Origin: an uncultured Gammaproteobacteria bacterium | Lineage (GTDB): Bacteria; Patescibacteriota; Patescibacteriia; 2-12-FULL-57-11 | Direction of reading: 5' to 3' | Assembly: GCA_964648865.1 (NCBI GenBank) | Contig: CAZYLV010000003.1 | Coordinates: forward strand, 33,731-97,730 | DNA: 64,000 nt | In this document: in pieces, positions 5,914 through 60,097 of the stretch | How the letters are laid out: each line of letters starts with the position of its first letter | Numbering within the stretch: the first letter of the stretch is position 1 | The notes under the pieces: generated by a model | Database searches by the model: none | Told to the model about the DNA's origin: nothing | The model's input: only the letters and a program-made list of their open reading frames with translations | Translations under genes and position numbers: made by a program

Positions 5914-5956
5914 GCTTGCCTCCTGGGTGAGGGAGATGGGAACATAGCACCCTCCG

Positions 5957-8884
5957 ATGCCGATGTCAATGCGCCCCGAGGACCTGCTCACCGACCTCAA
6001 CCCGGAGCAGCGGACGGCGGTCACCCACGACCGCGGCCCGTTGCTGATCGTGGCCGGGGCGGGGACCGGCAAGACCAGCGTCATCACCCGGCGCATCGGC
6101 TGGCTGATGGCCTCGGGCAAGGCGCCGGCCGAAGGGATCCTGGCGCTGACCTTCACGGACAAAGCGGCGGCCGAGATGGAGGAGCGGGTCGATCGGCTGC
6201 TGCCGCTCGGTTACGGCGACCTTTGGATGTCGACCTTCCACGGGTTCGGCGAGCGCGTGCTGCGCGAGCGGGGCCTGGAGATCGGCCTGCCCGGCGGCTT
6301 CCGCCTGCTCGACGAGACCGGCCAGTGGATGCTGCTGCGCCGCCACTGGGACGCGCTCAGGCTCGACTACTACCGGCCGCTCGGCAATCCCACCAAGTTC
6401 CTGCAGGCGCTCATCGCGCACTTCTCCCGCGTCCAGGACGAGCTGGTCGCGCCGGCGCAGTACCTGGAGTTCGCCAAGGCGCAGGCGCTGGACACCGACG
6501 CCGACGAGGCGCGCGACAGCGAGGCAAAGAGGCTGGCCGAGGTGGCCGAGACCTATCACGCCTACAAGCGCATCCTCCGCGACGAGGGCGCGCTCGACTT
6601 TTCCGACCTCATCAACGAGACGCTGCGGCTGTTGCGGGAGCGCCCGCAGGTGCTGGCCGAATTCCGGGCGCGCTTCCGGTACGTCCTGGTCGACGAGTTC
6701 CAGGACACCAACTGGGCGCAGTACGAACTGGTGAAGCTGCTGGCCGGGGACGCCAGGAACGTCACCGTGGTCGGCGACGATGACCAGTCCATCTACAAGT
6801 TCCGCGGCGCTTCCGTCTCCAACATCCTGGACTTCACGCGGGACTTCCCGGACGCGGCGCGCGTGGTGCTGACCCGCAACTACCGTTCGCGGCAGGAGAT
6901 CCTGGACTGCGCGCACGCCTTCATCCAACACAACAACCCGGACCGCCTCGAGGCCCGCATGGGTGAGGCGCTCTCCAAGAGGCTCGTCGCCGAGCGGGGG
7001 ACGGGCGGCGCCATCATCCGCCTGCATGGCAAGAGCCTGGGCGACGAGGCCCGGCTGGTGGCCGAGAAGATCCTTGAGCTGCACGAGAAGGACGGCGCCA
7101 GCTGGAACGACTTCGCCATCCTCAGCCGCGCCAACGACCACGCCGAGCCGTTCCTGCAGGCGCTCAGGGCGCGCGGCATCCCGCACGAGTTCGTGGCGGC
7201 GCGCGGGCTCTTCACCGACCCCATCGCCATCGACATCCTGGCCTACCTCCGGTGCCTCACGGACCCGAACGACAGCCCGTCCTTCTACCGGCTGCTGACG
7301 ACGCCGGTGGCGCCCATCGCCCATGACGCGCTGGTGGCGCTCACCCACCACGCGGCCAGGAAGGGCGTGACGCTGTTCGAGGCCGCCCGTCGCGCCGAGG
7401 CCGTGCCCGGGGTGGGGGAGGGGGCCGCCACGGCGTTGCGCACCCTGGTGGCGCTGCTGGAGCGGCATGGGCTCGAGGCGCGCCGCGCGCCGGTCGGACG
7501 CGTGCTGCTCGCCATGCTGCACGAGTCGGGCTACCTCAGGGCGCTGGCCAACCAGAGCGACGAGATGAGCCGCGAGGCCATGCGCGTGCTGCAGCAGTTC
7601 TGGAGGGCCGTCGAGGGCTTTTCCGCGGAGGAACCCGAGCCCACCGCCCAACGCTTCCTGCAACACGTGCGCATGCAGCTCGACGCCGGCGACTCCGGCT
7701 TCTTGCCGCCGGACCCGGAGGCCGGTCCGGAGCTCGTGCGTGTCATGACCTGCCATGCCGCCAAAGGGCTCGAGTTCGCCAACGTCTTCGTGGTCAATCT
7801 CGTGGACCGCCGCTTCCCGACGTCGGAACGCCGCGACGCGATTCCGGTGCCGGAGGCCTTCATCAAGGAACAGTTGCCCGAGGGCGACGCCCACCTCCAG
7901 GAGGAACGCCGCCTGTTCTACGTGGCCATGACGCGCGCCCGGGACCGGCTGTTCCTGACGTCGGCCGAAGACTACGGCGGCAGCCGCGCCAAAAAGCCCT
8001 CGCGCTTCCTGGAGGAGTCCGGCTTCGGGCCGGCGACCGCGGAGAGCCGCGAGCCGATCGTCGAGTTCGACCCGATGCCGCGTCCGGCCTTCGGCGCGCT
8101 GCCCATCCCGGAGCGGATGAGCTTCACGCAGTTCGCGGCCTTCGAGACGTGCCCGCTGCAGTACAAGTACGAGCACCTCCTGCGCATCCCCAAGCGCGGC
8201 AACGAGAACCAGAGCTTCGGACAGTCGGTGCACGGGACGCTGCAGGAGTTCTTCGAGCGTTACCGGGCCCGCGGGGCAGCGGCCGTGCCGACGCTCTTCG
8301 ACCAGGCGCCGGCCGCGGAGCGGAAGCCGGTCGGGCAGGTGGTGCCGCTCGACGAGCTGCTGGAGATCTATCGGGAGAAGTTCGTCGACGAGTGGTATGC
8401 GGATGCCGCGCGGCGCACCGAGCGTTATGAACGCGGCCGCGCGGCGCTCACCGCGTATTGGAACCGCATCGCCGGCGAGACGGTCGACATCGCGGGCATC
8501 GAGGTCGGGTTCACGCTCAAGTTCGGCGATGCCGTGGTCAAGGGCCGCATCGACCGCATCGACCGGCTCCCGGACGGGACGGTCCGCATCGTCGACTACA
8601 AGACCGGCAAACCCAAGGAGCGGCCGGACAAGGACCAGCTGTTCATCTACCAGCTGGCGGCACTGCGTGTCCTCGAGATGAGGCCGTCAGCGCTCACGTA
8701 CCACTATCTCGAGGGAGACGTGGAGACGTCGTTCCTCGGCACCGACGACGATCTCGCTGACCTTGAGGAGCGCATCAACGCGACCGTGGCCAAGATCCGG
8801 GCCAGCCGTTTCGACGCCACCCCCAACGTCTTGGCCTGCAGGTTCTGCGACTTCAAGGACATCTGCGAATCGCGCGTCGTCTAG
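5957..8884 (+). CDS. UvrD/PcrA-family DNA helicase fused to a C-terminal PD-(D/E)xK (RecB/Cas4-like) nuclease domain with a Cys cluster
   Basis: 975 aa. Walker A AGAGTGKTSV, helicase motifs (DEFQDTN, TFHGFG, ..QNYRS) and a C-terminal nuclease region (GRIDRIDR..VDYKTGKP ... CRFCDFKDIC). Ends with TAG. Confidence 0.9.
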   Translation: MPMSMRPEDLLTDLNPEQRTAVTHDRGPLLIVAGAGTGKTSVITRRIGWLMASGKAPAEGILALTFTDKAAAEMEERVDRLLPLGYGDLWMSTFHGFGERVLRERGLEIGLPGGFRLLDETGQWMLLRRHWDALRLDYYRPLGNPTKFLQALIAHFSRVQDELVAPAQYLEFAKAQALDTDADEARDSEAKRLAEVAETYHAYKRILRDEGALDFSDLINETLRLLRERPQVLAEFRARFRYVLVDEFQDTNWAQYELVKLLAGDARNVTVVGDDDQSIYKFRGASVSNILDFTRDFPDAARVVLTRNYRSRQEILDCAHAFIQHNNPDRLEARMGEALSKRLVAERGTGGAIIRLHGKSLGDEARLVAEKILELHEKDGASWNDFAILSRANDHAEPFLQALRARGIPHEFVAARGLFTDPIAIDILAYLRCLTDPNDSPSFYRLLTTPVAPIAHDALVALTHHAARKGVTLFEAARRAEAVPGVGEGAATALRTLVALLERHGLEARRAPVGRVLLAMLHESGYLRALANQSDEMSREAMRVLQQFWRAVEGFSAEEPEPTAQRFLQHVRMQLDAGDSGFLPPDPEAGPELVRVMTCHAAKGLEFANVFVVNLVDRRFPTSERRDAIPVPEAFIKEQLPEGDAHLQEERRLFYVAMTRARDRLFLTSAEDYGGSRAKKPSRFLEESGFGPATAESREPIVEFDPMPRPAFGALPIPERMSFTQFAAFETCPLQYKYEHLLRIPKRGNENQSFGQSVHGTLQEFFERYRARGAAAVPTLFDQAPAAERKPVGQVVPLDELLEIYREKFVDEWYADAARRTERYERGRAALTAYWNRIAGETVDIAGIEVGFTLKFGDAVVKGRIDRIDRLPDGTVRIVDYKTGKPKERPDKDQLFIYQLAALRVLEMRPSALTYHYLEGDVETSFLGTDDDLADLEERINATVAKIRASRFDATPNVLACRFCDFKDICESRVV

Positions 8885-8886
8885 CT

Positions 8887-9204
8887 ATGGCCATGGAACC
8901 GCTCGGCAAGCTGATCAAGAAGCAGATCGCCGCCAAGGCCGACTTGGCCGGGCCGTTGACCGCGGCGCGCATCGTCGCCGCAGCAGGGCAGGAGCTCGCC
9001 GACGCCTACCCGTCGCTCGCCAAGCGCGTCCGTGTGGTCTCCTTCCGCGACGGCATCCTCTCCGTGGCGACGGCCAGCGGCGCGGCGGCCGCGGAACTGC
9101 GGCTGCGCGAGGGCCGGTACCTTGCAGGCCTGCGCGCGCGTCTCGGCAGCGCCGTCCGTGCGTTGCGGTACGGTGTCGGCGCGCGGTACGATGGAGACGC
9201 ATGA
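8887..9204 (+). CDS. DUF721-like small protein (105 aa)
   Basis: Starts 2 nt after the helicase stop. Its pattern (LGKL..., VVSFRDGILSVATASGAAAAELRLRE..L) resembles the DUF721/DciA-like family. This assignment is from memory of the family profile. Confidence 0.45.
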   Translation: MAMEPLGKLIKKQIAAKADLAGPLTAARIVAAAGQELADAYPSLAKRVRVVSFRDGILSVATASGAAAAELRLREGRYLAGLRARLGSAVRALRYGVGARYDGDA

Positions 9205-25171: not shown

Positions 25172-25183
25172 CCGGAGGACCCT

Positions 25184-27823
25184 ATGGCAAACGACCGTTT
25201 CACCAAGAAGGGCGACGAGGCCGTTCGCGCCGCGCGCGAGATCGCCGAGCGGCACCGGCACCGCGCCATCGACGACATGCATCTGCTCTCCGCGCTGGTC
25301 AGCCAGCCGGACGGGTTGGTCCCCGGCGTCCTGGAGCGCATCGGCGTCGATGTCGATGCGTTGCTCGAGGAGACCGACGAGCTCATCCACGAGGGCATGC
25401 CCCCGGGCGAGATCGTCTTCGGTACGACGCGCCGCCTGATCGACGCGCTCTCCGCCGCGGAGACGCTCTCCCAGGAGATGGGCGACCCGGTGGTCGGCAC
25501 CGAACACATGTTCCTCGGGCTGCTCGATAAGGGCGAGCGCCTCATTCCCCTCTTCCAGGACCACGGGGTGGACCGCAAGAGCTTCGAGGCGGCGCTCAAG
25601 GACGCCCGCGAGGCCGGGACGGGGCGAGCCCCGGAGCGCGAGGCGCCCAAGGTGCTCGAGAAGTACGGCCGCAACCTCACGGCACTGGCGCGGCAAAAGA
25701 AGCTCGATCCGGTCATCGGTCGCGACGACGAGATCCGCCGCGTCATCCAGGTGCTCAGCCGCCGCACCAAGAACAACCCGGTGCTGGTGGGCGAGGCCGG
25801 GGTCGGCAAGACGGCCATCGTCGAGGGCCTGGCCCAGCGCATCGCCTCAGGCGACGTACCCGAGTCGCTGGTCGACCGCGACGTCGTGGCGCTGGACCTC
25901 GGCGCCCTCGTGGCCGGCACCAAGTTCCGCGGCGAGTTCGAGGAGCGCCTCTAGGCCGTCATGAAGGAGATCGAGAAATCGAACGGCGGCATCATCCTCT
26001 TCATCGACGAGCTCCACACGCTCGTCGGCGCCGGCGGAGCCGACGGCGGCTCGCTGGACGCCTCCAACATCCTCAAGCCTGCGCTGGCCCGCGGCGAGCT
26101 GCACGCGATCGGCGCCACGACGCTGCGCGAGTTCCAGAAGCATATCGAGAAGGACCCCGCGCTGGAGCGGCGCTTCCAGCCGGTCATGGTCCATGAGCCG
26201 ACGGTCGAGGACACCATCGCCATGCTCCGCGGCATCAAGGAGAAATACGAGGTCCACCACGGCGTCAAGATCACCGACGCCGCCATCGTCGCCGCTGCCG
26301 AGCTCAGCCACCGTTACATCAACGACCGCTCCCTGCCGGACAAGGCCGTCGACCTCGTGGACGAGGCCGCCGCCGCGCTGCGCATGGACGTCGACAGCCA
26401 GCCCGTGGAGATCGAGCGCCTGCGCCGCGACGCCACGCGCCTGGAGATCGAGAAGCGCGCCCTGGAGGCCGAGGACGACCCGGCACAGGCCGAGCGCAAG
26501 ACCCAGGTCGGCCGCGAGCTGGTCGAGCTCAACGAACGCATCGCCGCGCTGGCCGCCAAGTGGACCAAGGAGAAGGAGATCGTCGGCGCGCTGCGCACGG
26601 CCCAAAAGGAGCTGGAACGCCTGCGCACCGAGAGCGACATCGCCGAGCGCCGCGGCGAGCTCGAGCAGGTCGCCGAGATCCGCTACGGCCGCATCCCGGC
26701 GCAGGAAAAGGCCATGGCCGCGCTCGAGGAGAAGCATCGCACCCAGAAGGGCGAACGCTTCATCAAGGACAAGGTCGGCGCCGAGGAGATCGCCGCGGTC
26801 GTCTCGCGCTGGACCGGCATCCCGGTCACCAAGATGCTCGAGACGGAACGGGAGAAGCTCCTGCAGCTCGAGGCCGGACTCGGCAAGCGCGTCGTCGGCC
26901 AGCCCGAGGCCATCGCCGCCGTGGCCAACGCGCTCCGCCGCAACCGCGCCGGGGTGAGCGAGGGCGAACGGCCCATCGGCTCGTTCCTCTTCCTGGGCCC
27001 AACGGGCGTCGGCAAGACGGAGCTGGCCCGCGCGCTGGCCGCCTATCTCTTCAACGACGAGACGGCCATGATCCGGGTGGACATGTCCGAGTTCATGGAA
27101 CGCCACGAGACGGCCAAGCTGATCGGTTCGCCGCCCGGCTACGTCGGCCACGACGAGGGCGGCCAGCTCACCGAGAAGGTCCGCCGCCGGCCGTACAGCG
27201 TGGTGCTCTTCGACGAGGTCGAGAAGGCCCATCCGGACGTCTTCAACCTGCTGTTGCAGATCCTCGACGACGGCCGGCTGACGGACGCCAAGGGCCGCCG
27301 CGTGAACTTCAAGAACACCGTCATCATCATGACCTCCAATGTCGGAAGCCGCTCGCTCAGCCAGGTCACGACCGGCGCGGCGTTGGGCTTCGCCGACGGC
27401 GACGGCGGGCAGGAACCGGAGCAGCGCATGCGCGAGAAGATCCGCGAGGAGCTCGAGGAGCGCTTCCGGCCGGAGTTCCTCAACCGCGTCGACGAGATCA
27501 TCACCTTCCATCCGCTCACGAGGACGCATATCGCCGACATCGTCGACGTGCAGCTCTCGCGGCTCGCCGAGCGGCTCAAGGAGCGCCGCGTCGCCGTGGA
27601 GGTGAGCGACGCCGCCAAGGCCTACCTGGCCGAGAAGGGCTACTCGCCGAGCTTCGGCGCCCGCCCGCTCAAGCGGCTCATCCAGACGGAGGTCGGCAAC
27701 CGCCTGGCCGAGGCATTGCTCAAGGGCGACATCGCCGAGGGCGACACGGCCGCGGTCGACGTCAAGAAGGACGCGCTGACCGTCAACCGCGCCCGCCGCA
27801 AGGTCAAGGCCGCCGTGGCCTGA
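25184..27823 (+). pseudogene. clpB: ClpB disaggregase, interrupted by a single in-frame TAG at 25952-25954 (conserved Lys position of ..[10 protein letters not shown]-..); otherwise intact
   Basis: Track ORFs 25184..25954 and 25961..27823 are contiguous ClpB in one frame. It carries an N-domain, NBD1 Walker A GEAGVGKT, a coiled-coil M-domain, NBD2 Walker A GPTGVGKTE and a sensor-2 region. TAG is a genuine stop elsewhere in this window. Confidence 0.85.
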
Positions 27824-29782: not shown

Positions 29783-30571
29783 ATGATCGTCTTCGGCGCC
29801 ATCATCCCCCACTCCCCGCTGCTCATCCCCGAGATCGGCAAGACGCACGCCAAGAAGCTGGCCAAGACCGTCGCCGCGGTGACGGACATCGAGCAGCGTC
29901 TGTACGTGACGCGTCCCGACACGCTGCTCATCATCTCGCCGCACGGCGACGTCATGCCGGACGCCTTCGGCATCAACCTCTCGGCGTCGTACAGGACGTC
30001 CTTCAAGGATTTCGGCAACTTCCGCGCGACCAAGACGTTCCGCTCGGACTTCATGCTCATCGACAAGATCCAGCGTTCCATCCGCAAGGACATCCCCCTG
30101 GCCCTGCACAGCGCCGAGACGCTGGACTACGGCTTCGGCGTGCCGCTGCATCTCCTCACCGAGCACATCCCCAACCCGGCCGTGGTCCCGGTGACCACCT
30201 CCGGCCTCGACCTCAGGACGCATTTCGAGTTCGGCCGCGCCATGCGCGAGGAGATCCTCACGTCCAACAAGCGCGTCGCGGTGATCGCCTCAGGCGACCT
30301 CGCGCACACCCTCAAGAACGACGCGCCGGGCGGCTTCTCGCCCAGGGGCGCCGAGTTCGATGCCAAGGTCCAGGAGCTGCTCGCCCAGCGCAACGTCGCG
30401 GCCCTGCTGCAGCTCGACCCGGGACTCTGCGAGGAGGCCAAGGAATGCGGCCTGCGCGGCATCCTCACGGCGCTCGGCGTCCTCGACGGCATCGATTACA
30501 CGCCGCGCATCCTCTCCTACGAGGGGCCGCTCGGCATCGGCTACCTGGTGGGCCACCTGCAGTTCTCCTGA
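29783..30571 (+). CDS. class III extradiol dioxygenase (LigB/YgiD)-fold protein, Memo-like
   Basis: 262 aa. A His-containing motif series (IIPHSP, ISPHGD, SGDLAHT) matches the LigB-fold pattern (HGSP, SAHW, GSGNxxHN). Confidence 0.6.
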   Translation: MIVFGAIIPHSPLLIPEIGKTHAKKLAKTVAAVTDIEQRLYVTRPDTLLIISPHGDVMPDAFGINLSASYRTSFKDFGNFRATKTFRSDFMLIDKIQRSIRKDIPLALHSAETLDYGFGVPLHLLTEHIPNPAVVPVTTSGLDLRTHFEFGRAMREEILTSNKRVAVIASGDLAHTLKNDAPGGFSPRGAEFDAKVQELLAQRNVAALLQLDPGLCEEAKECGLRGILTALGVLDGIDYTPRILSYEGPLGIGYLVGHLQFS

Positions 30572-32382
30572 TGCGCATCGTCCGCGCCGTCCCCGCCTTG
30601 CGCCTGCCGCCGCGCATCGGCTGGCTGGATTATGCGTGCCCGGACGACGCGGCCGTGGCGCCGGGCGACGTGGTCTGGGTGCCGTTCCGCCGCCGGCAGG
30701 TGGCCGCGCTCCTGCTTGAGGAAGCGCGGACGAGCGCGGTGCCGACGGTCAAGCTCGCCGTCCTGCCCGAGGCGCTGCGTCCGCTCTCGCGTCTCGAGGC
30801 GCCGACGCTCCAGGCCTTCCGCGAGACGGCCGCGCTCTTCCATGCGCCCTTGCCCTGGCTGCTGGCCTCGACCCTGCCGACGGTCCCCCGCCGCGCGCTG
30901 CCGCTGCCGGAGAGCCTGCGGTCGGCCGAGCTTGGTGCCGGCTCCACTGGTGCGCTCGTGCGCCATCGCGGCGACGTCGTCGAACGCTACCTCGACGTGA
31001 TCCGGGAGACCGGCGCGGCCGCACGGCAGACGCTCATCGTGGTTCCGGACATCCTGCGCGGGACGGATCTGTGGGAGGCGTTTTCCCGGGCGCGGTTGTG
31101 CGTGGCCTTTTGTCATCACGAGCTCGCCGCCGGCGCGCGCTGGAAGGCGTGGAATGCGCTGGCCCGCCAGGAGGCGGACGCGCTGATCGTCACCAAGTCC
31201 GGAGTCTTCGCGCCTGCGCCGCTGCTCGGCCAGGTCATCGTCGACGGCGAGGACGACGCCGACCATGTGCAACGCGACGCCTTCCCCTACCTGGACGCAC
31301 GGGACGCCGCCGAGCGCCGCGCACGCCTGTCCCGCGCCGCGCTGCTGCTCGCCTCGGAGACGCCGCGCTTCGCGACGGCCTGGCGGGCGCGGGAGTCGCG
31401 GTGGGAGTCCACGGCGCCGCCCCCGGCACCGCCGGAGACGCGCTTGGTCCCGCTCCGGCAGGAGCCGATGGGATTCCGCCGGAGCCTGCTCTCCGGCGCC
31501 CTCCTGGACGCGGCCCGCGAGGCTGGACAGAGCGGAAAAAACGTGGTAGCGTTGCTCAACCGTACGGCCAACGCACGGAGCGTCTCCTGCGCCGATTGCG
31601 GCCTCGTCCTGCGCTGTCCCACGTGCGGACTGGCGCAGGCCGTGCGCGACGGTCGATTGGCCTGCGGCCGCTGCGCGACGCGCGTCGCCATGCCCGGATC
31701 CTGCCCGCGTTGCGGCGGCCAGCGGCTCACCGAGCGCGGCCCAGGCATCGATGCCGTGCGCACGGCGTTGGCCAGGGCGTTGCCGGAACTGCCGGTGCAT
31801 GCGCTGACCCGGGATCGCGACGTCCCTGCCGACGACGCGCCCGCGGTGTTCCTGACCACGGAGACGCTCTTCAAGAACGCCCGCGGCATCCTCTCCCGCC
31901 CCCTGGGCCTGGTGGCTGCGCTGGAAGCCGACACCGGCCTGCGTCTGCCCGAGTATCGAGCGGCAGAGCAGGCTTGGGCGCTCCTGGAGCGTCTGGCGAA
32001 CGTGGCCCGCCGCGCCGAGGCCCCGCTGCTGCTCCAGGCCTGGGAGCCGGACCATCCGGTGCTTGCGGCAGTGCAGAGCGGCAACCCTGCCGCGCTCGTC
32101 GCACAGGAACTGACGGACCGCAAAGCCTACGGTTATCCGCCGTTCGCCGCGCTCTGGACCCTCTACCCGACCTCGACCGCCGATGCGGCGGCTGCGACGC
32201 TGCGCCGCGCGCTCCCCGATGCCGACGTCTTCCCGATCGAACGCGCGGAGGGACGGCGCGCGGTCCGCGGACGTCCGGCGCTGCGCCTGCGCACCGCGGC
32301 TGCGGAACAAGACGTGCGTCGCGCCTTCGCGGCGCTGCCGCCGGACTGGATCGTCGAGCCCGAACCCGAACGGTTTTCCTGA
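30571..32382 (+). CDS. priA: PriA-like primosomal protein with degenerate helicase ATPase motifs
   Basis: 603 aa from the Met at a TGATG overlap. An N-terminal 3'-DNA-binding-domain-like region (GDVVWVPFRRRQVAALL) and the PriA Cys-rich Zn region (CADCG...CPTCG...CGRC...CPRCGG). Walker A is replaced by HRGDVVERYL and DEEH by DGEDDADH. Confidence 0.7.
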   Translation: MRIVRAVPALRLPPRIGWLDYACPDDAAVAPGDVVWVPFRRRQVAALLLEEARTSAVPTVKLAVLPEALRPLSRLEAPTLQAFRETAALFHAPLPWLLASTLPTVPRRALPLPESLRSAELGAGSTGALVRHRGDVVERYLDVIRETGAAARQTLIVVPDILRGTDLWEAFSRARLCVAFCHHELAAGARWKAWNALARQEADALIVTKSGVFAPAPLLGQVIVDGEDDADHVQRDAFPYLDARDAAERRARLSRAALLLASETPRFATAWRARESRWESTAPPPAPPETRLVPLRQEPMGFRRSLLSGALLDAAREAGQSGKNVVALLNRTANARSVSCADCGLVLRCPTCGLAQAVRDGRLACGRCATRVAMPGSCPRCGGQRLTERGPGIDAVRTALARALPELPVHALTRDRDVPADDAPAVFLTTETLFKNARGILSRPLGLVAALEADTGLRLPEYRAAEQAWALLERLANVARRAEAPLLLQAWEPDHPVLAAVQSGNPAALVAQELTDRKAYGYPPFAALWTLYPTSTADAAAATLRRALPDADVFPIERAEGRRAVRGRPALRLRTAAAEQDVRRAFAALPPDWIVEPEPERFS

Positions 32383-32383
32383 C

Positions 32384-32866
32384 ATGCCCAAGCGTCTGCC
32401 CATCATCGCGCTGCCGAACCCTGTCCTCCGCAAGAGGACGGCTTCGGTTCGTCCGGAGGAGATCGTCACGCCGGAGTTCCAGGCGTTCCTCGAGGACATG
32501 ACCAAGACGATGTTCGAGGCCGACGGCGTGGGGCTCGCCGCCAATCAAGTGGCCGTCTCCAGGCAGGTCACGGTCATCTCCACCAAGGACGGCCCGTTGG
32601 CGCTCATCAATCCGCGCGTCACCCGCATGTCCAAGAAGACGGAACGCGGCGAGGAGGGCTGCCTGTCCGTGCCCGGCGTCTGGGGACTCGTGGACCGCTC
32701 GGTGGAGCTCGACGTGGAGGCCCTCGGCCGTGACGGCACGCCGCTGTCCTTCACGGCCAAGGGCTTCTTCGCCCGCGTCATCCAGCACGAGACCGACCAC
32801 CTCAACGGGACGCTGTTCATCGACCGCGCGGTCGAGGTCCACGAGGCCGAGCCGCGCGACGCCTGA
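32384..32866 (+). CDS. def: peptide deformylase
   Basis: 160 aa. Motifs GVGLAANQV, EGCLSVPG and QHETDHLNG. Confidence 0.94.
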   Translation: MPKRLPIIALPNPVLRKRTASVRPEEIVTPEFQAFLEDMTKTMFEADGVGLAANQVAVSRQVTVISTKDGPLALINPRVTRMSKKTERGEEGCLSVPGVWGLVDRSVELDVEALGRDGTPLSFTAKGFFARVIQHETDHLNGTLFIDRAVEVHEAEPRDA

Positions 32867-32869
32867 GCC

Positions 32870-33805
32870 ATGCGCATCGTCTTTTGGGGGACCTCGACCT
32901 TCGCCGTCCCGGCCTTGCGCGCGCTGCACGCCGCTGATGGCGTCGAGCTCGTCGCCGTGGTCACCCAACCGGACAAGCCGCACGGCCGTCATGGCGACAT
33001 CCTGCCGGGCCCCGTGGCCGCCGCCGCGCGAGAGCTCGGCCTGACGCTGCTCCAGCCGGAGACCGTGAGGGACGAGACGCTCCGGCAGACGCTCGAGGAT
33101 GCGGCGCCCGACGTCGCGGTCGTGGCCGCCTACGGCCGCATCATCCCGGAGGCGCTGCTGGCGATCCCGCGGCTGGGCACGCTCAACATCCACCCGTCAT
33201 TGCTGCCCCGCTGGCGCGGTCCCTCACCCATCCAGGCGGCCATCGCGCACGGCGACGCCGAGACCGGGGTGAGCATCATGCTGCTCGACGCCGAGATGGA
33301 CCACGGTCCCCTGCTCGCGCAGCGCCGCGTCCCGCTCTCCGGGACCGAACGGTACCCCACGCTCGAGACGCACCTTGCCGAGGTCGGGGCCGCGCTGCTC
33401 TTGGAGACGGTCCCGCGGTACGTCTCAGGCGGACTGCGACCCGTGTCGCAGGACCACGACCAGGCCGTCTTCTGCGGCATGCTGGACCGGGACAGCGGCC
33501 GCGTGGACTGGAGCGCGTCCGCCGTCTCCATCGCCCGTCTCGACCGTGCCTACGATCCGTGGCCCGGCATCTGGACCGAGTGGACCGACGGCACGGCGAC
33601 GCTGCGCGTCAAGCTCTTCGATGCGCGCGTCGAGGACGTGGTCGCCGACTTGGGAGCCCTGTCGCAGCGGCAGGACCGGCTCCTCGTGGGAGCCCATGCG
33701 GAATCCGTGTCCTTCGGCGAACTGCAGGTCGAAGGCAAGAAGCGCCTGACCCTCACGGAGCTGCTGCGCGGGATGCCGATGTTCCTGGACGGACGGTTCC
33801 GCTGA
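32870..33805 (+). CDS. fmt: methionyl-tRNA formyltransferase
   Basis: 311 aa. An N-terminal formyltransferase domain (..LNIHPSLLPRWRG..) and a C-terminal domain. The def-fmt order supports the call. Confidence 0.93.
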   Translation: MRIVFWGTSTFAVPALRALHAADGVELVAVVTQPDKPHGRHGDILPGPVAAAARELGLTLLQPETVRDETLRQTLEDAAPDVAVVAAYGRIIPEALLAIPRLGTLNIHPSLLPRWRGPSPIQAAIAHGDAETGVSIMLLDAEMDHGPLLAQRRVPLSGTERYPTLETHLAEVGAALLLETVPRYVSGGLRPVSQDHDQAVFCGMLDRDSGRVDWSASAVSIARLDRAYDPWPGIWTEWTDGTATLRVKLFDARVEDVVADLGALSQRQDRLLVGAHAESVSFGELQVEGKKRLTLTELLRGMPMFLDGRFR

Positions 33806-50692: not shown

Positions 50693-50709
50693 AACGAGAC
50701 AGGTTTCAT
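50676..50709. repeat. Perfect 17-bp tandem direct repeat (AACGAGACAGGTTTCAT x2) spanning the hydrolase start codon
   Basis: On the minus strand this gives two ATGAAACCTGTCTCG copies. The upstream copy is out of frame and terminates after 6 codons. Confidence 0.8.
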
Positions 50710-50730
50710 GGCGACGGGACAGGATGCATC

Positions 50731-52938
50731 TCACTCCACAGGTTCGGCGGGCGTCGACGTGGCACCCTGCAGACGGTCGATACGCGCGCGCAGCTCGCGG
50801 TTGTCCGGAGCCAGGGCGGCGGCGGCCTCGTACCAGCGCTGCGCGGCCGCGTTCTCCCCTTTCTGCTCCAACAGCTCGGCGATGCGGATGAGCGGCGTGG
50901 GATCCCCGCCGAGGAGCTGCGCGGCGCGGCGGGCAAGCGTCTCGGCCGCGGCCAGGTCGCCGTCCGCGCCCCGGCCGGTGAGCACGCCGGCGAGCAGGGT
51001 GAGCGGCGCGGCGTCGAGCGGCGCGGCCCGCACGCCGTCCTCGGCTGCGGCCACGGCCTCGTCCGTGCGGCCGGTCTCGATGAGCAGGGCCACGAGCCGC
51101 GCCCGTGCCGGGAAGACGGCCGGCGCCAGACCGACCGCCGCGCGGTAGGCCTCCTCCGCGCCGGCGGCGTCGCCGCGCAGGGAGCGCAGGTCGCCGAGGG
51201 CGATGGGGAACGTGGGGTTGGCGGGTTCCGCGGCGCGGGCGGCGGCGATCCAGGCGTCGAGCTCCGGGACGTCGCGGCCGGCGCGCACGGCCTGCATGCC
51301 GACGGTCACGGCGGCCTCGAGCAACGAGGCGCGGCCGGAGGACGCCGCCAGCCGGGCGCGGACAAGCGCCGCATCCAACGCGACGGTCGGGTCTTCCGCG
51401 GCGGCGGCGCGCTCCAGGGCGACCAGCGCGCCGACGGCATGGATCTCCGGCGGCGGGGTCCGGCCGAGCGCGGCGGCGTAGGCGGCTTCGGCATCGTCCG
51501 GCGTCCGCGACCGCAGGACGGCACCGAAGGCCCGGCCCGCGACGCAGGACCAGACGGTCGCGGCCAGGGCGATGGCCGCCAGCACGAGCAGCGCGGTACC
51601 GGTCCAGCCGAGCAGCAAGGCACGACGCCCGTCCTCGGTCTTCGCGGGCTTCTCCGTCTCAGGACGCGCACCGAGCAGCCAACCGACGCCGAGGGCGGAC
51701 ACGAACAGCCCGGCGGGGGGCACCATGCTCCAGGCGGCAGCGGCGACCAACGCGACGACGAGCGCGGCCATGCCGGCCGCCGCAAGACCGACATCGTCCG
51801 CGGGCGCGGTACGGCGGGCGAAGGCGCGCCGCACGCCACGCGCCGCCGGCACGGCCGCCGAGGTGCGGACCACGGAGACCAGCGACACGCCGACGAGCAC
51901 GAGGGACGCCGCGAGTCCCGCCAGGCCGAGGTCGTACAGCCATTGCAGGAGCACGTTCGGCGCCACCGGGAACCGCACGTTCCAGATGGCCGGACCGTTG
52001 AGCGATGCGGGCCGGACGCGGCCGAAGGCGTCGAGGAAGGTCCCCGGGCCGCTGCCGAAGACGGCGGCGAGCGGATCCTGACGCCAGAGGCCGGGGGCGG
52101 CGGCGAGCACGTCCATGGGGCGCAGATCCACCTCCGCCGGAACCGTGGCGACCAGCGGCGCAGGGAGACGCACCACGGCGAGCAGCAACGACACCGCGGC
52201 CAGCGCGAAGACGGCATTCGCCCCCGGCCGCCAGAGTCCGCCGAAGCGGCGCAACGCGGCGGCGAGCAGGACCACCAGCCCCAGGCACAGCACGCCCCAG
52301 ACGAGGCCGCGGTCCACGCGCACCAGGACGGCCAGGTGCAGCAGCGCCGACGCGACCCAGAGGGCGCGGGACGCGGGGGGCTGGCCGGCGCGGACGAGCG
52401 CGGCGGCGGCGATCACGATCGCCGGGAGGGAAAGCAGCGCGGCATGCGTCGGGACGGCCGCGGCGAAGGACAGCACGTCGCCGGAGGGCAGCGGCCACGA
52501 CGGGAAGAAGGTATGCAGCAGGAGCGACGCCTGGTGGAGACTCAGCGACGCGACGATCCCGACCGGGAGCGTGCGCCGTGCCGCAGGGACGCCGGCCGCC
52601 GGGACGGCCGCGGCCAGGGCGAGCAGCAGTGAGCCGGAGGCCGTCCAGAACACCGGACGGCCCCAGAACGCGGCCAGGACATCGCCCGAACGCAGGACCG
52701 AGACGAGCGTCACCAGAACGAAGGCGCCCAAGGCCGCTGCGGCGATCCGCGACGGTGGCCGCGCGGCGACGACCGGCAGGGCGCCCCACAGCGCGAGCAG
52801 GGACAACGTCAGGACGGCTGCGGCGCGCGCGGCGCCGATGTCGGCGGAGCCGGGGCCTACCCAGAACAACGCGGCGGCCAGTGCCGACAGGAGGAAGACG
52901 CCGGGCAGGTGCGGACGCGCGTCGGACAGGCGTTTCAT
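50731..52938 (-). CDS. Wzy_C (O-antigen ligase / O-oligosaccharyltransferase-like) polytopic membrane domain fused to a long C-terminal TPR array (735 aa)
   Basis: Internal Met of track ORF 50731..53481. About 10-12 TM helices containing the ..AVFGSGPGTFLDAF.. Wzy_C-type loop. The last ~300 aa are Ala-rich TPR-like repeats (..AEEAYRAAVGLAP.. ..AQRWYEAAAALAP..). Confidence 0.7.
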   Translation of the reverse strand: MKRLSDARPHLPGVFLLSALAAALFWVGPGSADIGAARAAAVLTLSLLALWGALPVVAARPPSRIAAAALGAFVLVTLVSVLRSGDVLAAFWGRPVFWTASGSLLLALAAAVPAAGVPAARRTLPVGIVASLSLHQASLLLHTFFPSWPLPSGDVLSFAAAVPTHAALLSLPAIVIAAAALVRAGQPPASRALWVASALLHLAVLVRVDRGLVWGVLCLGLVVLLAAALRRFGGLWRPGANAVFALAAVSLLLAVVRLPAPLVATVPAEVDLRPMDVLAAAPGLWRQDPLAAVFGSGPGTFLDAFGRVRPASLNGPAIWNVRFPVAPNVLLQWLYDLGLAGLAASLVLVGVSLVSVVRTSAAVPAARGVRRAFARRTAPADDVGLAAAGMAALVVALVAAAAWSMVPPAGLFVSALGVGWLLGARPETEKPAKTEDGRRALLLGWTGTALLVLAAIALAATVWSCVAGRAFGAVLRSRTPDDAEAAYAAALGRTPPPEIHAVGALVALERAAAAEDPTVALDAALVRARLAASSGRASLLEAAVTVGMQAVRAGRDVPELDAWIAAARAAEPANPTFPIALGDLRSLRGDAAGAEEAYRAAVGLAPAVFPARARLVALLIETGRTDEAVAAAEDGVRAAPLDAAPLTLLAGVLTGRGADGDLAAAETLARRAAQLLGGDPTPLIRIAELLEQKGENAAAQRWYEAAAALAPDNRELRARIDRLQGATSTPAEPVE

Positions 52939-53384
52939 GGGCGGCTGAGGTTCTCGGAAATCAGGGACTCGATGTCGTCGACCCAACGGGCGTCGCCCGG
53001 CGTCGGCTCCTCGTCTTGCCGAGGAGCGGCCGGGGGGAGTGCCCGCGCATCGGACCGCGGCAGGGATGGCCGTGCGAAGGCACCGCGGATGAAGGCGGCC
53101 GCGGCGCGGTCGGCGGCGTCGGCGACCTCGATGCTGCCGAGCGCCACTCTCCCCCACCACAACGCCGCCGTCTCGGAGACGCGGAAGGCGAACTCGTCCC
53201 AGGCGGCGACGCCTCGGGTGAGTGCGCTGCGCGCATCGGCCAGCGGGTGCCAGCGGGAGACGGTCTGGACCGCGCGCCACGGCGCGGCCGCCACGTCGAT
53301 GCGCAGGTCCTCGAAGCCGCGCGCCGCGACAGGTGCGGGCAGGAGCACGGCGGCAAGCAGTACGGCGACGACGACCCCCCTCAT
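52935..53384 (-). CDS. small secreted protein (149 aa, signal peptide MRGVVVAVLLAAVLLPAPVAARG)
   Basis: Internal Met of track ORF 52935..53867. Its ATG overlaps the upstream ATPase stop (ATGA) and its stop overlaps the next gene's start by 4 nt. Confidence 0.5.
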   Translation of the reverse strand: MRGVVVAVLLAAVLLPAPVAARGFEDLRIDVAAAPWRAVQTVSRWHPLADARSALTRGVAAWDEFAFRVSETAALWWGRVALGSIEVADAADRAAAAFIRGAFARPSLPRSDARALPPAAPRQDEEPTPGDARWVDDIESLISENLSRP

Positions 53385-55150
53385 GGCTGCGGCGGTCCGT
53401 CGAATTCGACCACTTCGCCCGGCGCCGGGCGGCCGCTCTTGGCCGAGAACGGCACCGGCTCCTGCTCCTTGAGCGCGGCAAGCGGCGCCGGCGGCTGCGC
53501 GGCCTCCTCGACGCGCTTGCGCTCGTCCTTGACGATCTTGAAGCAGTCGTCGCAGTAGTACGGGCGGCTGGGGTCCGGCTGGAAGGTCAGCTGGAGCTTC
53601 TTGCCGCAGCGTGCGCATGTGGCGTCGTGGAGCTTCTTGGCTTGCTTCGCCGGGGCGGGCGCCGACTTCTCGCCAGCGGGCGCCGGCTGGGGCGCGGGCG
53701 CTGCGGGCCTCGGGGCAGGCCGGGCAGGCGACGCGCTGCGGGGCGGCATCCGCCGCGCGGGAGCGGCGGATGCGGCACGCGGCGCCGGTCGCGGCGCGGC
53801 GCCCGTACGCGCGGGGGACGCGGCCGGCGTGCTGACGAAGGTCTCCCCGCCCGCCAGCCCGGACCACTGCAGGATCTTCTCCTCGATGACGGCGCGCGGC
53901 GTGGCGTAGCGCTCCCGCGACACCTTGATGACCTTGTCCGTGCTGCCGGTGCGGACGTTGATGGGCGGCAGCGTATTGGCGGAGAAGATCTCCGAGGCCA
54001 CGCCGTCGATCATCAGTTTGACGTAGACCTCGAACTTGGTGAGGTTGACAAGGTCCTCCGGCAGGAAACGCGGCGCCACCTCCTGCTCCAGGAACAGGGC
54101 GTCCGAGGCGCCGACGCGGAAGAAGACCATCGTGCCGACGTTGCCGAAGACGGCCGGCCGCACGTAGTCCTCGTCGAGCTGCTCGATGTACTGGTGGGCG
54201 ATGACCAGGTTGAGCCGGTACTTGCGCGCCTCGGAGAGGATGTTGGCGAAGCTGGCCGTGGCGAAGTTCTGGAACTCGTCGACGTACAGGTAGAAGTCGC
54301 GGCGGTCCTCCTCCGGCATGTCGACGCGCTCCATGGCGGCGAGCTGCAGCTTGGTGATGAGCATGCCGCCGAGCAGGCGCGAGGAGTCCTCGCCGATGCG
54401 GCCTTTGGCCAGGTTGATGATTAGGATCTTGCCCTCGTCCATGACCTGCCGCATGTCGATGGTCGACTTCACCTGGGCCACGATGTTGCGGATGATGGTC
54501 GCCGCCAGGAACTGTCCGACCTTGTTCTGGATCGGGGCGATGGCCTCGTTGCGGAAGCGGTCCTCCCAGCGCGCGTACTCGTCCTGCCAGAAGGCCTTGA
54601 CCACCGGATCCCTGACCACCGCGAGCACGCGCTTGCGGAACTCCTTGTCCACGAGGATGCGGTTGATGCCGAGCAACGTCGAGCCGGGGTACTCGAGCAG
54701 CGTCAGGATGCAGTTGTTGAGGATGTGCTCCATCCGCGGGCTCCAGACGTCGGGCCAGATCTTCTTGAAGACGCCCATCAGGCCCTGGGCCGCGAGCGGC
54801 CGGGTGCGCTCGTCCACGGCCTCGAGCACGTTGAAGCCGATCGGGAAGTCGAGGTCGGCCGGGTTGAAGTAGACGACGTCGTTGATGCGGTGCGCCGGGA
54901 TGAAATCCAGGAGCTTCTCGGCGGTGTCGCCGTGCGGGTCGACGTAGGCCACGCCATGCCCCGCGGCGATGTCGTTGAGGATCATGTTCTCGAGCAGGGT
55001 CGTCTTGCCCATGCCCGTCTTGCCGAGCACGTAGACGTGCCGGCGGCGGTCGTCGGTCTTGATGCCGAACTTCCGCCGGGCGTTGCGGAAGTTGGTCTCG
55101 GCGAAGAAGTTGATCTCGCTGTCGTGGTCGTGGTCGTACTGCAGCGCCAT
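53381..55150 (-). CDS. type IV secretion coupling-protein-like ATPase (VirD4/TraG/TraD family, soluble) with a Pro/Ala-rich linker and C-terminal C4 zinc ribbon
   Basis: 589 aa. Walker A LGKTGMGKTTL and Walker B LYVDEFQNF. A T4CP C-terminal signature (..IAHQY.. ..FGNVGTMVFFRVG..). A C-terminal zinc ribbon CARCGKK...CDDC. No N-terminal TM helices. Confidence 0.75.
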   Translation of the reverse strand: MALQYDHDHDSEINFFAETNFRNARRKFGIKTDDRRRHVYVLGKTGMGKTTLLENMILNDIAAGHGVAYVDPHGDTAEKLLDFIPAHRINDVVYFNPADLDFPIGFNVLEAVDERTRPLAAQGLMGVFKKIWPDVWSPRMEHILNNCILTLLEYPGSTLLGINRILVDKEFRKRVLAVVRDPVVKAFWQDEYARWEDRFRNEAIAPIQNKVGQFLAATIIRNIVAQVKSTIDMRQVMDEGKILIINLAKGRIGEDSSRLLGGMLITKLQLAAMERVDMPEEDRRDFYLYVDEFQNFATASFANILSEARKYRLNLVIAHQYIEQLDEDYVRPAVFGNVGTMVFFRVGASDALFLEQEVAPRFLPEDLVNLTKFEVYVKLMIDGVASEIFSANTLPPINVRTGSTDKVIKVSRERYATPRAVIEEKILQWSGLAGGETFVSTPAASPARTGAAPRPAPRAASAAPARRMPPRSASPARPAPRPAAPAPQPAPAGEKSAPAPAKQAKKLHDATCARCGKKLQLTFQPDPSRPYYCDDCFKIVKDERKRVEEAAQPPAPLAALKEQEPVPFSAKSGRPAPGEVVEFDGPPQP

Positions 55151-55153
55151 ACG

Positions 55154-56635
55154 CTAGACCGGAAGGTTCTCGGGCGGCGCGCCGGTGCCGGCCTGGGAGG
55201 GCGCCGGCTGCTGCTTGGGGCGGATCGGCGGGGCCGCGGGCTCCACGGGCAGACGCAGCGGCGGCTCGGCGCGCTTGGACTCGGCCTTCTTGACGGTCGG
55301 GGTCTTCACCAGGAGCGACGGGAAGTGCCAGAGCGACGCCAGCTCCTCGGTCGACAGGATGTAGGGCGTGGCGCCGCGGAAGTTATGCCGGTACTTGTAC
55401 GCCCAGAAGATGGACTTGATGCGCTCGTTGGTCGTCTTGTAGAACGTGCCGGACAGGTAGAAGAAGATCGGATTGAGCTGCCAGAAGTAATCGTACTTGG
55501 TGGTCACCGGGCCGTAGAAGCCGAGCTTGTTGAGGTTGAGGGTGGTGAACTGCTGCAGCGCGCCGCGCACGAAGGAGATGATCGTGCCGGTGCGGAAGTT
55601 CTTCTTGGGGGCGATGTAGATGAAGCGGATCTTGGTCTTGAGCCCGATCTTGGAGAGCTTCTGCTCGACGCGCTCCACGACGAACCGCTCGCCCGGGGAG
55701 AGGTGCAGCATCTGGGAGCGCGGCTCCTCCTTCTTCTGCTGCGGTTTGGCCGGCTCGCCGCCGATCAGCCCGGAGACGCCGATGTCCAGCGCTTGGAGCG
55801 GCAGGTCCATGGCCTTGTCGAGCGCCGTCACCTTGGGCGCGACCTTGGCGCCGATGAGCTTCTTGACCAAGGTCTCGCCGGCGTCCTTCCAGTCCTGGCT
55901 GCAGGTCGTCACCAGGATCTGCAGCCAGACCTGCTCGCCCGCGCCCAGCTTGGCCAAGCCCTCGAGCAGACCGGCCATGGGATCCTTGAACTCGCCCGAG
56001 ATGGGATCGCTGAAATCGAGGTAGGTCTTGATGGGGTAGAACTCCGGCTTGCTCGGCACGAACTCCGAGCCGAAGAAACCCCACTCCTTGTTCGGCCAGG
56101 GCCACTGCTGCGGCACGTTGAGCACGTAGTCCTCGACCTCGGTGATCTCCGCCTCGGGATACTGCGCGTAGATGGTGGCCTCGACGAGGTCGCGGTACTT
56201 CTCCCAGACGCGCACCAGGAACTGCACGTACCCTTCGATGGAGACGATCTCGAAGCTGAAGACGGGCGGCATCTTGCCGTCCCAGAACCGCTCCTTGCGC
56301 GTGAAGCTGGAGTGCGCGCCGAGGAGTTGGGCGAAGATGTTCTCGACGGCCTTGGGTGTCTGCTCCGTGGACTTGGGCACGTCGACCGCCAAGAGCACCG
56401 GGTTGACCGAGTTGATGAACAGGAACTGGCGCTCGTTGATCCAGATCCACCAGAAACCGCGCAGGAAGACGATGAGTACGGGGATCCAGCCGCCGGCGCG
56501 GAACAGCTCCCACATGACGATCACCGGATGCTGGGCGCCGAGCCAGTCGATATACGCCAGAAAGGCACCGACGTCGATGGAGATCATCGGCATATGCGCA
56601 ACCAGTATAACACAGGAAAGACAAAGGAGGGGCAT
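55154..56635 (-). CDS. membrane protein (493 aa): N-terminal TM helices plus a large soluble domain; partner of the T4CP-like ATPase
   Basis: Track ORF. A hydrophobic N-terminus (..WIPVLIVFLRGFWWIWI..). No family recognised. Separated from the ATPase gene by 3 nt. Confidence 0.6.
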   Translation of the reverse strand: MPLLCLSCVILVAHMPMISIDVGAFLAYIDWLGAQHPVIVMWELFRAGGWIPVLIVFLRGFWWIWINERQFLFINSVNPVLLAVDVPKSTEQTPKAVENIFAQLLGAHSSFTRKERFWDGKMPPVFSFEIVSIEGYVQFLVRVWEKYRDLVEATIYAQYPEAEITEVEDYVLNVPQQWPWPNKEWGFFGSEFVPSKPEFYPIKTYLDFSDPISGEFKDPMAGLLEGLAKLGAGEQVWLQILVTTCSQDWKDAGETLVKKLIGAKVAPKVTALDKAMDLPLQALDIGVSGLIGGEPAKPQQKKEEPRSQMLHLSPGERFVVERVEQKLSKIGLKTKIRFIYIAPKKNFRTGTIISFVRGALQQFTTLNLNKLGFYGPVTTKYDYFWQLNPIFFYLSGTFYKTTNERIKSIFWAYKYRHNFRGATPYILSTEELASLWHFPSLLVKTPTVKKAESKRAEPPLRLPVEPAAPPIRPKQQPAPSQAGTGAPPENLPV

Positions 56636-56665
56636 GGTCCGCCATGCCCCTCCCGGTATGGATGC

Positions 56666-59321: not shown

Positions 59322-59500
59322 GGTAACGGATGCCGCGGCATCCCTGCAAGCTTGGGCACTTGCCAAGCCCTGGAGGCGTGGTAGGTTGGGAGTGGTCACG
59401 GCATGCCCCGCCCCACCCCAACTACCCCGGGGTTCGCCGCGACCCCGCCGCTTCCGGTCTCGCAACCCTCCCCCCGAGAGACCGTGGAACGGCGGTTTTT

Positions 59501-60097
59501 CTATTTCCTACCGACGACCTGGATCCATATCCCTGCGTGGTCGGCGTGAACGATGCGGAAGCCGGCGTCGGAGACGAACTGCCGCATCTCGTCCAGCGTG
59601 TGATAGCTGAAGAAGCGGGTATACGCATACCCATAGTCGTCCTCGGTCTTCTGTTCCTCCTCCGCCTGTCCCGGACGGATGTGTTTGACGGTCACGGAGA
59701 TCAGACCGCCGGGGTTCAGGCGGTCGCGACAGGCGCGCAGGACCCCCAGGACCTCGGACTTCTTGAGGTGCAGGAAGGACGCCCACGCCGTGATGGCGTC
59801 GTACGTCTCAGGCAGCGTCCCGACGTCCCGCATGTCCAGGACCTGGAACGCGATGCCCGGATACTCGCGCTGCGCGATCTCGATCATCTTCTCCGAGATG
59901 TCGACGCCGGTGACGGAAAACCCGCGGTCAGCGAGCCACCGCGCCTTGGTGCCGCCGCCGCAACCGACGTCGAGGACGCGCGCGCCGTCGGGCAGCAGGC
60001 CGACGAGCTTCTCGGCCCAGGCAAACCACCAGTCGTCCTTGAGGTGGTCGCGGTGCCAGTCCTCGGCGATGCGGTCGTAGGTGTCCTTAAGATCCAT
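59501..60097 (-). CDS. class I SAM-dependent methyltransferase (198 aa)
   Basis: Internal Met (MDLKDTYDRIAEDW..). Motif I VLDVGCGGG and acidic motif II. The upstream part of track ORF 59501..60424 is antisense junk. Confidence 0.75.
   Translation of the reverse strand: MDLKDTYDRIAEDWHRDHLKDDWWFAWAEKLVGLLPDGARVLDVGCGGGTKARWLADRGFSVTGVDISEKMIEIAQREYPGIAFQVLDMRDVGTLPETYDAITAWASFLHLKKSEVLGVLRACRDRLNPGGLISVTVKHIRPGQAEEEQKTEDDYGYAYTRFFSYHTLDEMRQFVSDAGFRIVHADHAGIWIQVVGRK

Follow-up and report, generated by a model that had tools for sequence, protein, structure and literature searches.

A PriA homolog with degenerate helicase motifs from a Patescibacteria lineage, a candidate motorless scaffold for replication restart

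We analyzed a stretch of 64,000 nt from an uncultured bacterium of the GTDB lineage Patescibacteriota (assembly GCA_964648865.1, contig CAZYLV010000003.1, positions 33,731 to 97,730 of the forward strand), hereafter called the window, and focused on one gene that encodes a 603-aa protein resembling the replication restart helicase PriA. The product is a true PriA homolog by sequence, predicted fold and synteny, and judged from its aligned motifs the motor is destroyed well beyond Walker A and B, with motifs I, II, III, V, and VI all lost. We concluded, with a probability of about 0.8, that the gene is the PriA ortholog of this organism, kept by purifying selection as a pseudohelicase, i.e., a motorless scaffold for fork recognition and assembly. 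An earlier sequence-only reading had described a PriA-like protein with an intact 3' DNA-binding and zinc region and dead Walker A and B motifs that would keep fork and SSB recognition. The core of that reading stood and could be extended to motifs III, V, and VI and to the winged-helix (WH) domain, which are also lost; its claim of SSB recognition (tentatively) and the implied novelty of an ATPase-dead PriA were not supported.

PriA identity and the degenerate motor

The gene lies in a 645-aa open reading frame (ORF; 30445..32382, plus strand). We used the ATG at 30571 instead of the upstream in-frame ATG at 30445 because the N-termini of all nine homologs read M-R-I/F-L/V-R; the stop codon is at 32380-32382. 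This start codon shares bases with the TGA stop of the LigB-family gene that precedes it (tcctgATGcgc). The GC contents of the three codon positions (0.78/0.57/0.87) give a coding pattern, with third-position GC (GC3) at 0.87 vs 0.91-0.95 in the neighboring genes. Ala, Leu, Arg, and Pro are abundant in the protein, and Lys accounts for just 1%. The features of the gene and its neighbors are listed in Table 1.

Several lines of evidence identified the protein as PriA. The only Pfam match was PF17764 (31.2 bits vs a cutoff of 22.7, aa 18-103); the helicase domains PF00270, PF00271, and PF04851, present in every canonical PriA match, were not detected by Pfam in the 603-aa protein. In NCBIfam, 12 of its 13 matches were PriA models, the best being NF004067 at 227 bits. 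A phmmer search against PDB sequences returned PriA structures only (Klebsiella pneumoniae 4nl4, E = 6e-40; E. coli 8fak, E = 1.4e-34), and a hidden Markov model (HMM) built from 98 canonical PriA sequences scored 284 bits on the ORF. The AlphaFold2 (AF2) model, computed from a 32-sequence alignment, had a mean predicted local distance difference test (pLDDT) score of 85.5 and a predicted TM-score (pTM) of 0.84, and contains two RecA-like lobes with the PriA-specific topology. In a Foldseek search of the PDB, ranks 1-9 were all PriA (TMq 0.65-0.78; top match 8fak_H, E = 2.4e-39, TMq 0.78), and the next family was Mfd, with E = 2e-7 at best. Another Zn-ribbon helicase family with different motif spacing, which the sequence-only reading had named as one finding that would overturn it, is thus ruled out by the Foldseek, NCBIfam, and Pfam results. 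The gene order also fits: priA is followed by def, which starts 1 nt past the priA stop codon, and by fmt. The order priA-def-fmt is a classic and common one in bacteria, found for example in B. subtilis.

Motif correspondences were derived from three alignments: phmmer to 4nl4, MAFFT with canonical PriAs, and MAFFT with E. coli K-12 PriA (NC_000913.3). All three placed HRGDVVERYL (aa 132-141, nt 30964-30993) and DGEDDADH (aa 225-232, nt 31243-31266), the two strings previously suggested as the dead Walker A and Walker B, at PriA motifs I and II. HRGDVVERYL replaces GSGKTEVYL, and in the E. coli alignment K230 and T231 correspond to V136 and V137, respectively. In the same alignment the first Glu of DEEH becomes G226; across the nine-member family this catalytic position is occupied by Gly, Ala, Arg, or Met. 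For motif V, the canonical GTQMxAKGHxFP compares with TTETLFKNARGIL in the 603-aa protein (GTQMxAKG to TTETLFKNARG). The strand-loop-helix topology of motif I is kept in the AF2 model (strand aa 127-131, loop 132-136, helix 137-149), and the model confidence drops below pLDDT 50 at aa 227-235, directly past motif II. A shifted but intact P-loop can be ruled out, since a regular-expression search found neither G.GK[ST] nor GxxG[SAT]GK[TS] anywhere in the whole protein. Its sole GK dipeptide, within SGKN (aa 321-324), was considered as a Walker A and rejected because it sits where the motif IV strand of lobe 2 begins, in place of the G-E/N-Q of canonical PriAs.

The WH domain is replaced by a short linker (Table 1). 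The second-best structural match was 6dcr (E = 1.3e-37, TMq 0.74), a WH deletion of E. coli PriA, which is similar to the window protein in its WH-less architecture and differs from it in being engineered and in having an intact ATPase core. The WH domain is also missing from the short canonical PriAs P0164, P0166, and P0030 of our sequence set. It is therefore not universal to the PriA family, as many short PriAs, canonical ones included, do without it.

The DNA-binding and zinc modules are retained. The N-terminal PriA region pointed out in the sequence-only reading was found at aa 32-49 (GDVVWVPFRRRQVAALLL). D17 and Y18 of E. coli PriA, whose roles in the 3'-end pocket are summarized in PMC5778457, align with D20 and Y21; Y21 and G32 are conserved at ≥94% in all PriA classes, and E. 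coli G37 corresponds to R40 and is not conserved in the 603-aa protein. The four CxxC pairs of the zinc region, also noted previously, are in place (C340/343, C349/352, C365/368, and C378/381; nt 31588-31713), and all eight Cys are invariant. In E. coli PriA, the aromatic-rich loop (ARL) K328-Y335 contacts the fork junction (PMC5175346); Q329, W333, and Y335 of this loop correspond to Q234, F238, and Y240, and Q234 and R244 in the loop region are conserved. The C-terminal domain (CTD) was modeled at pLDDT 78-93 and ends in a conserved W-I-x-E/D-P, with the Foldseek alignment spanning 660 columns; PF18074 was not detected by Pfam in the 603-aa protein.

Table 1. Positions of the priA-like gene, its domains and motif remnants, and related genes in the 64,000-nt window
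Feature	Position (nt)	Strand	Basis
DciA (DnaB-loading factor), candidate partner, not adjacent to priA	8887..9204	+	PF05258, 41.7 bits vs cutoff 24
LigB-family gene (class III extradiol dioxygenase-like)	29783..30571	+	PF02900, 126.9 bits; stop overlaps priA start (TGATG)
priA-like gene, 603 aa (same sequence as database protein P0001)	30571..32382	+	PF17764, TIGR00595, PDB PriA, AF2 model, Foldseek
3' DNA-binding domain (aa 1-110)	30571..30900	+	PF17764; pocket D20/Y21 = E. coli D17/Y18
Linker aa 111-125 (15 residues) in place of ~100-aa WH domain	30901..30945	+	~100-column alignment gap
Degenerate motif I/Walker A, LVRHRGDVVERYL for LxGVTGSGKTEVYL; 2-residue deletion, no Lys/Thr	30955..30993	+	Alignments
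Degenerate motif II/Walker B, VIVDGEDD for VVIDEEHD, with ARL remnant (HVQRDAFPYLDAR)	31234..31302	+	Alignments
Motif III remnant, LLASETPR for xLGSATPS (SAT to SET)	31345..31368	+	Alignment
Cys-rich region, four CxxC pairs (8 Cys, predicted to bind two Zn)	31579..31725	+	All 8 Cys invariant in alignments
Motif V remnant, FLTTETLFKNARGIL for LVGTQMxAKGHxFP	31849..31893	+	Alignment
Motif VI remnant, LERLANVARRA for LxQVAGRAGRA; Q, G, first R, and G lost	31984..32016	+	Alignments
CTD aa 526-603, shortened; SSB-tail arginine position = Glu	32146..32379	+	E. coli PriA alignment, Foldseek
def (peptide deformylase)	32384..32866	+	PF01327, 150.9 bits; kept downstream neighbor in related loci L001-L004
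fmt (methionyl-tRNA formyltransferase)	32870..33805	+	PF00551 + PF02911; kept in L001-L004

Selection on the gene and a class of short Walker-less PriAs

A search of 5.8 billion proteins yielded eight close homologs, 52-90% identical with 100% coverage and all free of helicase Pfam domains; in a genome-contig scan the close family was carried by only two GTDB species representatives. The gene block ClpC - 475-aa hypothetical protein - LigB - PriA - def - fmt is kept in both types of related locus that were compared, in relatives at 56-90% identity, and synteny also extends to relatives at 52-57%. Between the window gene and its 90%-identical ortholog in locus L001, dN/dS was 0.155 at a dS of 0.37 (Nei-Gojobori), inside the range of the neighboring genes (def 0.07, LigB 0.21, fmt 0.33). 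The nine-member family has 152 invariant columns, which include all Cys as well as H132-R133-G134, C181-H182-H183, and D225/E227/D228/D229/D231/H232. The sequences that took the place of the dead motifs are hence under constraint of their own. The gene is kept under purifying selection and shows no decay. These results dispose of the idea that it is a decaying relic or an annotation artefact, a chance ORF of a high-GC genome, as might be thought from its GC3 below that of the neighbors, its Ala/Arg/Leu/Pro-rich and Lys-poor composition, and the many spurious long ORFs that overlap the locus in other frames. The low dN/dS, the full-length orthologs with kept synteny, the confident PriA-like model, and the invariant columns all speak against it, and we consider it hardly credible.

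To place the protein among PriAs, the family profile was compared with 1.84 billion cluster representatives, which gave 16,733 matches; motif columns were taken from the best 150 matches together with those found earlier, 181 sequences in all. Among these, 98 were canonical (median 768 aa), with GVTGSGKTEVYL, DEEH, SAT, and QVAGRAGR, and 83 lacked GK[ST], nearly always together with the other motifs (median 625 aa). In the 71 distant members of the degenerate group, the Cys are conserved at 99-100%, and Y21, G32, P159, P215, P265, N330, R331, G333, T430, E466, Q489, R517, and P523-P524 at 89-100%; conservation is 46% at the motif I Lys, 28% at the catalytic Glu, and ≤14% at the motif VI arginines. 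Relative to canonical PriAs, mean pairwise identity among the degenerate ones was 1.04 in the 3' DNA-binding domain, 0.87 in the Cys-rich region, and 0.84 in the CTD, and 0.54 and 0.59 in RecA lobes 1 and 2, respectively. This pattern is the signature of a protein in which the DNA-recognition and zinc modules are still selected and the motor serves merely as a scaffold. HRGD and EDDxDH are not common to the wider degenerate class.

All degenerate members with a named source belong to the candidate phyla radiation (CPR)/Patescibacteria: Patescibacteria group bacterium (SCUL01000002.1, JBBUJK010000040.1, EPN90_02805), Ca. Uhrbacteria (OGL72312.1, OGL78957.1), Ca. Falkowbacteria, and Parcubacteria group. 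Most members are metagenome proteins that carry no source name, and the breadth seen within CPR should be read as a lower bound, an impression instead of a census; with this proviso, there is an indication that PriA has as a rule lost its motor across a large CPR assemblage. We found nothing relevant on PriA of CPR/Patescibacteria in the searchable literature. The degenerate proteins are often labeled "hypothetical" and are narrowly missed by the priA equivalog model.

A neighbor-joining (NJ) tree was built with the motif columns excluded; it is crude and carries no support values, and since the midpoint root fell inside the degenerate class, monophyly was judged as a bipartition. In this tree the canonical clade excludes 79 of the 83 degenerate sequences, and the canonical sequence nearest to the degenerate class is P0164 (PIZ56789.1, 665 aa), a short canonical PriA from Ca. 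Torokbacteria, itself a CPR lineage. P0164 resembles the degenerate class in a one-residue ARL insertion (KQWDQNPRYDAR; WDQNPRYDAR) and in a shortened CTD (NWIVDVDP), and its motif I lies at aa ~151 instead of ~218, a short N-terminal region consistent with WH loss. Unlike the degenerate class, it keeps VTGSGKTEVYL, DEEH, SAT, GTQMITKG, and QVSGRTGRG, and by these motifs is presumably an active helicase. Because of the shared short N-terminus, ARL insertion, and CTD deletion, together with the NJ placement, the simplest reading is that the motor was most likely lost within CPR, from a short, WH-less, active PriA like that of Ca. Torokbacteria.

Actinobacterial PriAs (PRK14873 group; e.g., Acidimicrobiales P0253 and Microbispora rosea P0262) are similar to the window protein in that they have no GKT or DEEH, keep the 3' DNA-binding domain and the eight Cys, and show PF17764 as the sole detected domain. 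UniProt flags actinobacterial PriA for having no detectable helicase domains. They are, however, only 22-30% identical to the window protein, which scored 72.5, 109.7, and 56 bits on NF011452, NF011453, and NF011454 (cutoffs 980, 812, and 951), below all three cutoffs; PF27106 is listed in precomputed annotation for five actinobacterial-type matches and not for the window protein. By sequence comparison the CPR and actinobacterial losses are separate, because most canonical PriAs are nearer to the CPR class than the actinobacterial ones: on the CPR-class profile the actinobacterial PriAs scored 166-279 bits vs 370-530 bits for most canonical PriAs. The scores of the window protein on NF011453 (110 bits) and on TIGR00595 (214 bits) point the same way. 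A search for published statements on the motifs of mycobacterial PriA gave nothing useful. The CPR loss also appears independent of the loss in Deinococcus-Thermus, for which the published description was used in the comparison.

The scaffold reading and its alternatives

An ATPase-dead PriA as such is a kind already known and characterized, contrary to what the sequence-only reading implied. PriA of Deinococcus radiodurans, which is devoid of ATPase and helicase activity, binds ssDNA (Kd 215 nM), forks (Kd 109 nM), and DnaB (Lopper et al. 2015, PMC4504706). It resembles the window protein in being a PriA ortholog whose Walker A and B motifs deviate from the consensus, and it supplies the concept of a motorless restart scaffold. 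According to the same paper, Deinococcus-Thermus PriAs carry Arg in place of the catalytic Lys of GKT; the window protein differs in having a loop 2 residues shorter and no GKT, in the loss of motifs III, V, and VI and of the WH domain, and in coming from another phylum. In E. coli, the K230R mutant (priA300) supports restart via the PriA-PriB pathway (PMC5778457), and K230A has no detectable ATPase activity (PMC5175346). These mutants agree with our reading of the window protein, as PriAs dead for ATPase, helicase, and translocase activity that still assemble primosomes. They are laboratory point mutants that still have their remaining motifs, the WH domain, and the partners PriB, DnaT, and DnaC, whereas the window protein comes from a DciA-carrying lineage in which the loss occurred naturally, is complete, and has become fixed. 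With Actinobacteria as the second natural example, what is new here is the CPR lineage.

On the precedents of D. radiodurans PriA and E. coli K230R and K230A, we propose a scaffold function by analogy. The pseudohelicase would neither bind nor hydrolyze ATP, and would neither translocate nor unwind. It would recognize abandoned forks and D-loops without ATP through the 3' DNA-binding domain and the inert lobes with their aromatic loop, and the junction and the lagging-strand template would be held by the inert RecA lobes, the aromatic loop, and the zinc region. DnaB would then be recruited, probably together with DciA, onto a lagging-strand template that is already single-stranded, and any removal of the nascent lagging strand would be left to another helicase. 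Fork binding and DnaB recruitment are the most likely activities of the window protein, to judge from the characterized homologs and, indirectly, from the conserved 3'-end pocket, ARL remnants, and Cys-rich region and from DciA in the window. The DUF721 ORF that had been brought up as a possible alternative loader is indeed DciA (Table 1).

Could the protein still bind and hydrolyze nucleotides at a non-canonical site and act as a slow motor? The topology of motif I is kept in the model, D225, E227, and R481 persist, and, according to PMC5778457, some studies have proposed that E. coli PriA has a second, weaker nucleotide site. Against this, the P-loop is 2 residues shorter and has no Gly-Lys-Thr, G.GK[ST] occurs nowhere in the protein, no member of the family has the catalytic Glu, and the losses extend to motifs III, V, and VI, the first arginine of motif VI included; in E. 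coli PriA, K230R or K230A alone abolishes the ATPase. We regard a cryptic ATPase as very improbable.

A more probable alternative, though still an unlikely one, is that the protein is a neofunctionalised PriA derivative, which kept the fold and zinc region for a role outside restart (e.g., as a DNA-structure sensor or regulator) and whose ATP pocket was reused as a ligand or metal site made of invariant His, Asp, and Cys. HRG, CHH, and the D/E-rich residues are invariant in the nine members even though the catalytic residues are gone; as the wider class has no HRGD or EDDxDH, these would have arisen within the family and be held there by constraint. Nor are the canonical SSB arginine and K61 of the 3' DNA-binding domain kept. 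On the other hand, the protein retains the D/Y residues of the 3'-end pocket, the ARL remnants, the Cys-rich region, and the ancestral priA-def-fmt position, and no second PriA that could perform restart was seen in the window. In a bolder scenario, one may picture that motor loss is ancestral in much of CPR (Parcubacteria-type lineages including Uhrbacteria and Falkowbacteria), that restart there depends on a structural, WH-less PriA with DciA-DnaB, and that the ATP pocket of the high-GC family was rebuilt as an invariant HRGD/CHH/DxEDDxDH metal or partner site. We consider this scenario unlikely.

A number of points weigh against the scaffold reading. The loss of ATP binding is deduced from the sequence, and the partnership with DnaB and DciA is putative, DciA being the one partner seen, 21 kb from priA. 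A search with the HMM of 98 canonical PriAs against the six-frame translation found no second PriA in the 64-kb window, which was the extent of that search. On TIGR00595, the priA equivalog model, the protein scored 214.1 bits, narrowly under the curated cutoff of 230.35, a shortfall that is expected from the lost motif columns. E. coli K61 corresponds to A63 in the 3' DNA-binding domain, a position that is not conserved in the family, with a basic residue two positions upstream. In the CTD, R697 of K. pneumoniae PriA was reported to be crucial for binding the SSB tail (PMC4129139); it equals E. coli R698 in the alignment and falls on Glu or Asp in the family, although the alignment runs through a loop and is insecure. 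Given the Glu or Asp at this position, the earlier claim that SSB recognition is kept finds, tentatively, no support, and since neither this arginine nor K61 is conserved, some canonical PriA contacts may be lost. Four degenerate sequences fell inside the canonical clade of the NJ tree, and in so crude a tree the degenerate class could look more coherent than it is through long-branch effects.

Surroundings of the locus and meaning of a motorless PriA

The window is ordinary chromosomal housekeeping DNA, with genes for ATP synthase, MreBC/PBP2, aminoacyl-tRNA synthetases, ribosomal proteins and RpoA, and SecDF. Its GC content is 64-75% throughout, very high for a Patescibacteria genome. No Rfam family (tRNA, rRNA, or riboswitch) reached its gathering score in the 64 kb despite ~50 protein genes. 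The LigB-family gene (AmmeMemoRadiSam-B-like) is translationally coupled to priA and is its upstream neighbor in four related loci; we know of no functional link between this family and PriA. DciA is a 105-aa protein whose gene follows, after 2 nt, that of a 978-aa UvrD-type helicase/PD-(D/E)XK nuclease fusion (AddA/AdnB-like; both genes together 5948..9204, plus strand). This adjacency may link end processing or fork repair to helicase loading.

Further upstream of priA, the ClpC-like AAA+ chaperone gene (25172..27823, plus strand) is broken by an in-frame TAG at 25952-25954. The ortholog in the related locus L003 (5092..7734, 880 aa) is uninterrupted and has Lys at this position (EERLKSVLKEIEK). 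The TAG looks like a single AAG to TAG change, which could reflect a nonsense mutation or an error in sequencing or assembly, or conceivably mark a site of read-through. The glutamyl-tRNA synthetase (PF00749 and PF19269; 22375..25014, minus strand) has an N-terminal WecG/TagA/CpsF glycosyltransferase domain (PF03808) in the same ORF, an unusual combination that is also found as one 729-aa gene in L003 (2245..4434). In SecD (57573..59507, minus strand), a PPIC-type rotamase domain (PF13616/PF00639, aa 225-312) is inserted between the P1 subdomains. A TrwB/TraG-like type IV coupling-protein ATPase (53381..55153, minus strand) with a C-terminal treble-clef zinc finger (PF23477) adjoins a 503-aa ORF with no Pfam match (55154..56665), and this region may be what is left of a conjugative or competence-like module for DNA transfer. 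Finally, a 645-aa ORF at 50695..52632 (plus strand), with a first-position GC of 0.91 and no Pfam match, lies in the part of the window with the highest GC content (0.73-0.75); it may encode a low-complexity Ala/Gly/Pro-rich surface protein, or may be no gene at all.

At the level of reviews, the helicase activity of PriA has been described as conserved "except in Deinococcus", and the motor loss in CPR runs counter to that statement. In the CPR set and in Actinobacteria the motor is lost while the 3' DNA-binding domain, the zinc region, and the CTD are constrained as in active PriAs, and the finding supports the view that fork recognition and the scaffolding of helicase loading, and not unwinding, are what PriA is universally selected for. 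A natural minimal PriA that has no WH domain and no predicted ATPase, from organisms of the DciA type, would provide a test case for replication restart without PriB, DnaT, or DnaC.

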